Shown piece by piece: positions 19,302 through 22,476 of a DNA stretch of 64,000 nucleotides. Below the pieces are notes generated by a model. The model worked only from the letters and a program-made list of their open reading frames with translations, searched no databases and was not told where the DNA came from. This DNA comes from Massalongia carnosa. Lineage: Eukaryota. The stretch is from NCBI GenBank assembly GCA_965645245.1, contig OZ287072.1, positions 248,001-312,000 of the forward strand, in the 5' to 3' direction. The position numbers were made by a program, and so were the translations under genes. Position 1 is the stretch's first letter. Every line of letters starts with the position of its first letter.

Positions 19302-20178
19302 GAGGCGGATCTCGTTTTTTATCATCAGCAAACGGACCATATCACTCCACATTCTCCAGCTTTTTCATAGACTCTTTAGCATTCGCGATGAGAGAAAAGG
19401 TTAACACCCATTCCAGAATCGTAGGCCTTAGCTTTTTTACAGCAAGCTAAACCCCCGAGTACTCTTGCAAATTCTTCCTTATTGTACGACGATATACTAG
19501 TTTCATGGCTCCGATATCCTTTACGCTTTCATTTGTCTGACAACCTTAAACCATATTTCCACCATTCTTCGCGTTGCCAAGAGCGAGAGAATGAAGCCAA
19601 TCTTGCCGGACCATCCTTTACCCATTTAGTAAAAGGATTAGTTATTAACCTGTCACTCTGTACACGCAAGCGAGGCAGAATTCCCGAGTCGTTGCCGACT
19701 AGAGGAAATCTACAAGAAACGGGAATGGCGTCCTGCTCTGCCTTTTCACACCAATCATTTCTGTCGGCAACACCGCTCTCGCCCCAGATTTGAAATCTCA
19801 TCTATGCGGTCTCTTATCTCTTCCTATAAGCAAGTCCTATCAGCAAAACCGGGCGGGAGAATAAGAGAACCCGGTCTGCACGATTAGGGCGGAGATGGAC
19901 AAGTAGGGAAACTTACCTAGGAAGAAATAGTCTGTAGCAGACTTGCAGAGCGCGCACAGACACGCAGCACACATAGCTCAAAGCACAGTCGCAAAATCAA
20001 ATCCAGAAATCGACGTTGGCTTTTTAAAATTCTATTGACATTTTATTTACTCCGTACATGGACTCTCTACTTAAACTGTAGGCTTTTGCTAAAGGGGTCC
20101 GAAGAAGGGGATCCACCTACTACTTTAATACCTCCTACAATCTCATCGCAGATGTATGTACGCATCTCGGCTAGGTAT

Positions 20179-22343
20179 CCCTCTCGCTGTCATTCTAGCA
20201 CCCCCCCCCAAGCTAAACCATTGTTGGTTAGAAAGCGCTAAACCTTAAACTTTTGACCAATCAATGTTATTCCTATTCACAAGAAGTTGTACGGAGTATC
20301 AGATACCTATTTACTCGTCCCCTATCATATGAATAGCTTCCCAACAGCTGGCTTTCTTACAGCAGGGCCTGATTGGATTACATCCTCCACAAGCCCATAT
20401 AGTCTGAGCACCCCTTCGCCTTCTTTTACGCCCATCGACACTTATTTCAGCCAGTGGCTCTCCCTTCCGCTTTGAAGGTCGTTTTTTCTCGGCGTTACAT
20501 TGCACACATCTTTTTCTGCCTTCAAGACGAACGTAATGATGAATGGGAGATGGTACTAAAGCATCAATCGTGGTATTGATGCTTATCTTTGATGAGCCGG
20601 GCCTGATGCCCGCTTGATTTGATATCAGTTCAAGAGCAATCCGACGAAGAAATTCAGAACGAGTAAATTTTATCTCCTCGGAATCGAAAGAGTTCAGCGA
20701 GTAAAGTTTATAGGCATTCAATCCGGCTGCATCTAAAATAAAAATGAACAAAGGCCACCAGTAACGATCCGTTCGACGATTGTATGAGTAAATCGCTCGT
20801 TGCTGAGCGTTTCCATCCGATCCCCCCATATGAAGATTATATTCTTTGATTGGGGCTGGTATCGGTAATCCTAAGGGCCGTTGAACCTCTTGATTGAGCA
20901 AGGGAATGGAGTGAGCCAGAGTTGATGGGAAATACGATACAATAGGTTGAAGAGAGGTCTCGGGAATTCCATATCTCTTGTGCGGATTTATATAGTGCAT
21001 TTCGTACAAGTCCTGAGGAGAATGACCGGTGGTCATGTACTGCACACCATTATTATCCACCCAGCCCATACAAAGCACCTTATCGTCGACCACCATATGG
21101 GCCTGAAGACCCCAGTCTTTTCCTTTTGAAGTGACGTCCCGTATGGCCAACAATTCTTCTGGAAAGCCCGAGCCCTTTTTAGCAGTTCCACTGGCAGCTA
21201 TTCCGATTGATCGAAGTGCCTTGAATAATTTCGTACTAGTAAAGAAATTATCACAGAAAAGATGATAATTCAGTGAGGATGGAAGTTCTTTACATAACTG
21301 AATCACTAGCAAAGCACTAGGAGTTAGTTTATCTTTTGGCAAAAATCCCAATTGTCTGACTGTTTTCAATTCACTTATTCTGCTACTCTTCGAGGCAAAC
21401 ATAAATGACAACAGATAATTATCCTGACAGAGACTGTAGATTTTAAATCCTTTATGGGCACTTTTTGTAGTAATCTGCAAGGTATGTCGAGAACGGCCCT
21501 TGAATAACACCAGCTGTTCATCTATAGATATCATACTTCCTGGTCTGCAATGTTTCAATGAAGTCTTTCGGAAATCAGTAGCCAACGGTTCCAGTTTCTT
21601 CCACCAATCAGGTCCTTGACCAAGTCCGATAGGCTCAGTCTGTCCATTATTGATTTTCAAAAATCGTTTGATTTGTTGAAATCGACCAAGCGACATCGCG
21701 GACAGAATAGGCATGATAACTGGTTTGTCAGGACGTTGATTCCAATAATCCTCTGTAGCAGGTAGATGATCGAGTCCCATAAGAATTAATATGCCCAAAA
21801 AACCTCAATTTCCGAGTCAGTAGTGTCAGTCCAAACCCGATGATTGTTCTCCTTCTCCTTTTCCATGTAGTTATTTGCCTTGATATTGGTATGATTTGCG
21901 ATGATACGACAATGCTGCCTTGTTATAAATAACCGAAATAATCCCAAAGGATTTCGAGAATCGTTTTCAACGAGCGGAACAAAAGGCCTGTTTTCAACCC
22001 GAATGGGGGTATATTTTGAGGAAATAGGGGGAAGGTCGATTAAAATATCCCGAACACTTCTTTTGCGATTTATTTTATGTTGCTTCGCTGAAATGGGAGA
22101 TTTGTCTGATACACTCGGGATTTCTTCTTCATTGAGCGTCATACTTATAATATCAATTCCGAAGCTAGAAGAATAGTAATTTATGTGATTTATTTTGATT
22201 GAATGACCGAATAGTATTCTTTGAAAAGTAAACAAACGCGCAAACACTCTAGAGAAAACTAATGTTCTGATGACTCATCGGTGCGGAAGCTAGTCCAATA
22301 TAGATTAGCTTGGGAGGGGGGTGCTAGAATGACAGCGAGAGGG
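20179..22343 (-). mobile_element. piggyBac-like DNA transposon, copy 1 (2165 bp)
   Basis: ~38-bp TIRs CCCTCTCGCTGTCATTCTAGCACCCCCC(T)CCCAAGCTAA at both ends, each flanked by AT; internal PGBD-type transposase. Confidence 0.93.
20311..22142 (-). pseudogene. piggyBac-type DDD transposase split by one frameshift
   Basis: SIDEQ, FCDNFFTS, YNLHMGGSD motifs and C-terminal Cys-rich domain; ORFs 21786-22247 and 20311-21798 join if the T6 run at ~21797-21802 is read as T7 (EIEVFLGILILMG). Confidence 0.8.
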
Positions 22344-22476
22344 ATGCCGTCAACTGTTCATTTAACAAGGACGAACTGTCATAGAAATCATATCCACATC
22401 AAAGTCCTTATATTCGCAGAGAGGGATTGTTAGCACATATTCTCATTCCAGCCTACTCTTATATCTTGGAAGCTTA

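Follow-up and report, generated by a model that had tools for sequence, protein, structure and literature searches.

The window analysed here, a 64,000-nucleotide stretch of Massalongia carnosa DNA (contig OZ287072.1), holds one complete copy and the beginning of a second copy of a transposon family (hereafter family A) that belongs to the piggyBac superfamily by its transposase, although it is not a canonical TTAA piggyBac. Very probably, family A is an autonomous member of a fungal piggyBac branch that moves by cut and paste and was amplified recently; it targets TATA (rarely TATG or CATA) and duplicates AT, presumably by means of a 2-nt 5' stagger. Its features, in window coordinates and with slashes marking the boundaries of the element, are the following:

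20179..22343, minus strand: piggyBac-superfamily DNA transposon, copy 1 of family A (2165 bp, CCC...GGG ends).
20177..20178, no strand: left copy of the AT target-site duplication, with a T before it (flank letters; contig X1 matches as far as 20178).
22344..22345, no strand: right copy of the AT duplication, with a G after it, which makes it an atypical TATG target (flank letters; family-wide end count).
20179..20216, plus strand: terminal inverted repeat (TIR) at the 3' end of the transposase gene, starting with CCC (repeat comparison).
22305..22343, minus strand: TIR at the 5' end of the transposase gene (repeat comparison).
20311..22142, minus strand: transposase gene, frameshifted in copy 1 near 21796 (open reading frame and PF13843 match), with a C-terminal Cys-rich domain.
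About 21522, 21252 and 20817, minus strand: catalytic Asp codons of the transposase gene (alignment with piggyBac motifs).
63404..64000, continuing to G000:C6:313569, minus strand: copy 2, with a full-length frame and flanks TAT/.../ATA (sequence).
47308..47311, no strand: TATA that closes the left arm of an inverted duplication on its outer side, a half-site; the right arm joins copy 2 after TAT.

The TIRs of copy 1 are perfect over 28 bp and extend to about 38 bp with one indel. They are flanked by ggtAT on one side and ATgcc on the other, where TTAA is absent, and copy 2, starting at 63404, is preceded by gctAT. The original prediction had noticed these flanks, the CCC...GGG ends and a piggyBac-type transposase, and all of them are borne out, with the limits of the element placed at 20179-22343. 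The transposase matches PF13843 (E 2.7e-44; E 4.8e-52 over the whole profile), three of its Asp residues align with the piggyBac motifs as a DDD triad, and its C terminus is, by sequence, rich in cysteine (residues 570-640 of the predicted protein P0001 contain seven Cys and three His). In intact copies, translation from the first ATG (about 22142) gives 610 aa, P0001 (645 aa) being the same transposase called from an upstream start. Near 21796, copy 1 has one A fewer than copy 2 and the contigs of all four runs; this frame break may be a real mutation or a homopolymer slip in the assembly. The only named close relative is an Endocarpon protein, and the flank of copy 1 is also present in a lichen metagenome, which would make an ascomycete associated with lichens the most likely host.

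A predicted model of the transposase (pLDDT 79.3) aligns with piggyBac (6x67) with a Z score of 33.0 and an rmsd of 2.4 over 396 residues, and with piggyBat (9c0f) with a Z of 29.6; the best non-piggyBac chain was Tn5 (Z 15.7), and mariner/Mos1 scored about 5.5. According to this model, the transposase has the piggyBac fold, composed of DNA-binding, catalytic and insertion domains. Together with this fold, it shares with Trichoplusia ni piggyBac (6x67/6x68) and piggyBat (9c0f) the DDD triad, a YN motif before the third Asp and the Cys-rich C terminus, and the element has, like both of them, CCC...GGG termini and a strict 4-bp A/T palindromic target. It differs from piggyBac in using TATA instead of TTAA, in duplicating 2 bp instead of 4 bp, in an identity of about 21-23% and in several residues of the omega loop (described below), and its TIR of 28-38 bp exceeds the average of 14 +/- 2 (PMC5381638).

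The genome (52 Mb, 25 contigs) was searched with a 24-base TIR pattern that left the flank out and included the CCC; all of the 91 matches were fetched and 45 two-ended copies of family A were resolved from them. Among the 39 full-length copies, 32 are at most four substitutions away from the family majority, and a frame of at least 640 codons is found in 23 of the 45 (two of 25 long frames sat in nested insertions and were dropped). Because most copies are nearly identical and so many keep the long frame, the burst of family A is recent and its copies are not isolated relics. In this survey of the flanks of all genomic copies, which the original prediction had proposed as a check, AT is found beside 90 of 90 distinct ends at the loci examined (TAT at 88, CAT at 2, TTAA at none), and CCC starts all 90, the search pattern itself having contained CCC. 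Since only 3.8% of the AT dinucleotides of the window lie inside TATA, such regular flanking by AT, and nearly always by TAT, is not a matter of chance. The direct repeat at the junction is of 2 bp in 43 of the 45 copies; of the other two, one has 4 bp at an ATATAT site and one, with a damaged end, has none.

The target AT proposed from two copies therefore holds in so far as AT always flanks the element, but the fuller target is TATA. Copy 1 is itself one of the two TATG or CATA exceptions to this rule, which vary at the outer T/A and never at the AT. The quasi-palindromic preference suggested by ggt-AT-gcc had been drawn from two sites and did not survive the survey: the GG..CC palindrome was read because copy 1 is the TATG exception, and beyond TATA, all that remains is a weak preference for C/G in the adjoining base (p=0.0036 in family A and 1.3e-6 in a second large family), with no other position standing out after allowing for 12 tests. 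An ordinary TTAA piggyBac with mutated flanks or misread ends has practically no probability, even if non-TTAA flanks of single copies have been ascribed to mutation (PMC5381638): the absence of TTAA from all the ends, the near-identity of the copies, which leaves no time for flank decay, and the TATA held by the empty sites refute it.

The filled sites by themselves can be parsed in three ways: AT is duplicated and the ends are CCC, TA is duplicated and the ends are TCCC, or nothing is duplicated. Empty paralogs, located inside other repeats, were found for four of the 45 family A copies (about 300 kb searched), and in all four pairs the two flanks, when placed on the paralog, share exactly 2 bp, a close paralog reading X-TATA-Y; the pair formed by C15:254524 and C18:1464261 has 99.7% identity over 290 bp, on both sides. 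The same 2-bp overlap was obtained at three further sites in three other families (34 loci tested), giving 7/7 informative pairs in four families with an empty X-TATA-Y and a filled X-TAT/element/ATA-Y. An overlap of -33 appeared in two pairings, which are secondary alignments of lower strength; the paralogs concerned give an overlap of 2 as well. Because all seven pairs show this overlap on X-TATA-Y, TATA is the target and only its central AT is duplicated. The comparison of filled and empty alleles, also among the checks suggested beforehand, thereby confirms that the AT comes from the target and not from the TIR, and that the duplication is of 2 bp, with AT present in the empty TATA; it was made at paralogous loci and not at 47306. 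At the C14 site, two paralogs of greater divergence (G000:C13:1819733 and G000:C22:235261) have TGTG where TATA stands in the filled copy and in a third paralog; judging from these letters, family A may gain new targets as repeats decay by C-to-T changes.

The parse TA/TCCC...GGGA/TA, with TA duplicated as in Tc1/mariner and, reportedly, in the element Ti_tr1, fits the filled sites equally well in most copies, and TA has indeed been reported for a PF13843 element (PMC3864998); a variant of it would make the AT part of the TIR, without duplication. However, a TA duplication predicts an empty X-TA-Y, which was found in none of the seven pairs, and the two exceptional targets vary at the outer T/A while the AT stays constant. 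These readings are highly improbable, and for the families examined the filled/empty pairs refute them. Tc1/mariner elements share a 2-bp duplication with family A (TA), but their transposase is unrelated, Mos1 and its kin giving a Z of about 5.5 against 33 for piggyBac. Ti_tr1, from Tuber indicum, is an ascomycete PF13843 element of comparable size (2,351 bp) with a 2-bp duplication and no TTAA, although it was reported with TA, in one copy, with a 52-bp TIR and three exons, and was left unclassified in 2013 (PMC3864998). It could follow the same TATA/AT rule, parsed differently, or represent a separate TA lineage.

With respect to the two copies in the window, a contig from another sample (X1) matches the left flank of copy 1 through 20178, including the AT, and then continues element-free, which gives modest support to an empty allele of copy 1. 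None of the joints listed (15 of 21, in contigs of the four runs over window positions 15000-25660) spans copy 1, and joints and small insertions occur around 22367-22474 in the aligned contigs. The site at about 47306-47314 had been regarded as the preserved empty site of copy 2, a claim that has to be withdrawn: the TATA at 47308-47311 is only a half-site, the right flank of copy 2 does not run on beyond it and a single junction is represented, and it was rejected as an empty allele.

This TATA belongs to a 5.1-kb near-perfect inverted duplication (47306-52441 and 58259-63403) that carries an amino-acid permease gene and whose 5.8-kb spacer is unique among the loci examined. Its right arm ends exactly at the TIR of copy 2 and its left arm at TATA, which suggests a rearrangement made by the transposase (alternative transposition).

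PF13843 has 121 matches in the genome. Among them, 42 loci that belong to families other than A (39-85% identical to P0001) gave 27 TAT/CC...GG/ATA calls, no TTAA and 15 without call, and 20 further loci added four more TAT/CC...GG/ATA ends. For the second large family, the TIR was matched exactly at 77 places, and TAT precedes 56/56 CCC ends at the loci examined. In metagenomes, 80 loci provided three TAT/CC ends (34-46% identity), 16 loci with TTAA ends (22-25%, or 22-26% over all the TTAA loci) and 59 without call, the latter mostly short or incomplete; two other TAT calls were false and were dropped. Internal palindromes that do not begin with CC account for the TAT calls at L167 and L170, as well as for the TAT half of the L147 and L172 calls, none of which was kept as an AT end. 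One element of the AT type (L141:214-2380) contains an internal TTAA seven bases into its TIR and could be mis-called as a TTAA piggyBac.

AT-flanked elements (34-80% identical) were grouped apart from the TTAA elements in a tree of 84 rows, in which 13 AT rows fall in a 37-row group (SH-aLRT 100) and the 17 TTAA rows are on the other side of the deepest branch; it is a quick, midpoint-rooted tree, with 54 of its 84 rows lacking an end assignment and three TTAA labels set by eye. A search with alignment A1 yielded no relatives among the prokaryote and viral contigs, and one with alignment A2, made of proteins from a sister group of fungi, yielded none among the viral contigs; against this genome a sister-group protein gave only matches of 30-35% identity, all at places among the 121 PF13843 matches. 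As far as these sequence comparisons go, AT duplication in TATA is a trait of a lineage with several families, in agreement with the divergent lineage that the original prediction had supposed.

In piggyBac, the omega loop holds the melted TTAA, on whose final A Y283 stacks; these residues also hold the 4-nt hairpin, to which Y439 and N440 bind as well (PMC7351741). The canonical signature of this loop (an aromatic residue, then KP) is absent from the AT rows of the alignment: the Pro is present in 17/17 TTAA rows vs 0/13 AT rows, and the Y283-equivalent aromatic in 16/17 vs 0/13 (one AT row being garbled by a frameshift). In contrast with these losses, the equivalents of Y439 and N440 are kept in 12 and 10 of the 13 AT rows, respectively; the fourth Asp (D450-equivalent) is replaced by Ala in 12 of the 13. 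These omega-loop differences may track lineage rather than target, because the TTAA rows are distant and because the sister group retains the Pro and yet also lacks the aromatic.

In the mechanism that we favour, the transposase would link the 3'-terminal G of either end to a target opened between T and A in both strands (T^ATA), which would correspond to a 2-nt 5' stagger instead of the 4 nt of piggyBac. The enzyme would still read a 4-bp A/T palindrome, with the cut moved one base inward on each strand, and the remodelled omega loop would be the likeliest seat of the changed cut. More speculatively, excision could still proceed via hairpins, leaving complementary AT overhangs that would allow TATA to be resealed without footprint; in the genome, a site vacated in this way would look like one that had never been filled. 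In the sequence, a 2-nt 5' stagger also looks the same as other chemistries with this product. If the element left its donor with 3' AT overhangs and entered each strand at TAT^A, with a 2-nt 3' stagger spanning the minor groove, ligation alone would give an identical product, one AT per junction being brought from the donor; the constancy of the AT at all 90 ends while the neighbouring base varies agrees with such a route. This alternative is unlikely: duplication-making DDE transposases generally use a 5' stagger, and the conservation of the hairpin-binding residues in most AT rows also speaks against it. The approach of piggyBac to its target from the minor groove (PMC7351741) would suit such 3' overhangs, but the termini keep the CCC...GGG of piggyBac, whose 3' G is the transferred end (PMC7351741, PMC5381638).

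Returning to the 5' stagger, a broader proposal, which we advance tentatively and with somewhat less than even confidence, is that a whole fungal branch of piggyBac, undefined in print, exchanged the 4-nt stagger for one of 2 nt by rebuilding its omega loop, keeping hairpins and footprint-free excision. TTAA duplication has been used to define piggyBac (PMC5381638, PMC4122938) and has been named as a limit on the use of piggyBac vectors (PMC13461360), and cryo-EM tied TTAA targeting and seamless excision to a single 4-nt conformation held by the omega loop (PMC7351741). If the proposal is true, the branch would offer a natural TATA-targeting counterpart of piggyBac. The same fold associated with a 2-bp duplication is a direct test of the 4-nt omega-loop model, asking if excision can be seamless with a 2-nt stagger and if the loop sets it; intact, young and near-identical copies ready for assay make the experiment easy. 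In the largest mining effort, candidates had to match TTAACC with no more than two mismatches (PMC13461360); a typical NTATCC end passes this filter only if N = T, and the branch is therefore probably under-sampled. Fungal repeat annotation should cease to assume TTAA.

No TATA-targeting, AT-duplicating piggyBac was described in the literature searched. Repbase and Dfam hold non-canonical, piggyBac-related subgroups with non-TTAA duplications (under names such as piggyBacA and piggyBacX), which constitute the main risk to novelty; the single ATAT site found here (1/45) is a chance extension. TTAA has been treated as general for piggyBac, its rare exceptions being attributed to mutations (PMC5381638). 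The presence of piggyBac in Pezizomycotina was reported, with no duplication data (PMC5751038), and a group with fungi, plants and algae was noted in PMC13461360. Nothing was added by PMC7805219, PMC10085805 and PMC5718144, no mention of piggyBac being found in the first of them. ISL2EU elements, like family A, duplicate AT (PMC4122938), but their transposase is unrelated, and most of them are described with a second ORF with a YqaJ domain, whereas family A has only one.

Several family A copies have a more complex structure. The copy C11:145 is a duplicate of a C1 copy, including its flanks. A different TIR element of 2.17 kb with TA flanks (G000:C6:2328945-2331112) is nested in one copy, and six others contain insertions of 0.27-5.9 kb. 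Two pairs of copies lie only 25 and 40 bp apart (G000:C1:2840627-2844981 and G000:C2:3241574-3245945), both inverted with the 3' gene ends face to face, in what looks like local hopping into neighbouring sites. At G000:C11:276523-279066 the flanks come from different repeats, one of them being the flank of the C21:1585878 copy, probably as the result of recombination between copies or of a rearrangement.

The window also harbours other mobile elements. Two direct repeats (25676-25996 and 32896-33225), about 93% alike and 7.2 kb apart, start with TG and end with CA, with no frame of at least 220 codons between them; they are likely the LTRs of a decayed retrotransposon. A small Tc1-like element (41326-42648) has an HTH_Tnp_Tc3_2 domain, TIRs of about 25 bp and TA flanks. 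Finally, about 130 bp from copy 1 there is a Pogo/Fot1-like transposon (22477-25562; DDE_1, HTH_Tnp_Tc5) with TA flanks and TIRs made of 17-bp tandem units, and a TIR of this same type is abutted by another family A copy at G000:C2:1442863.
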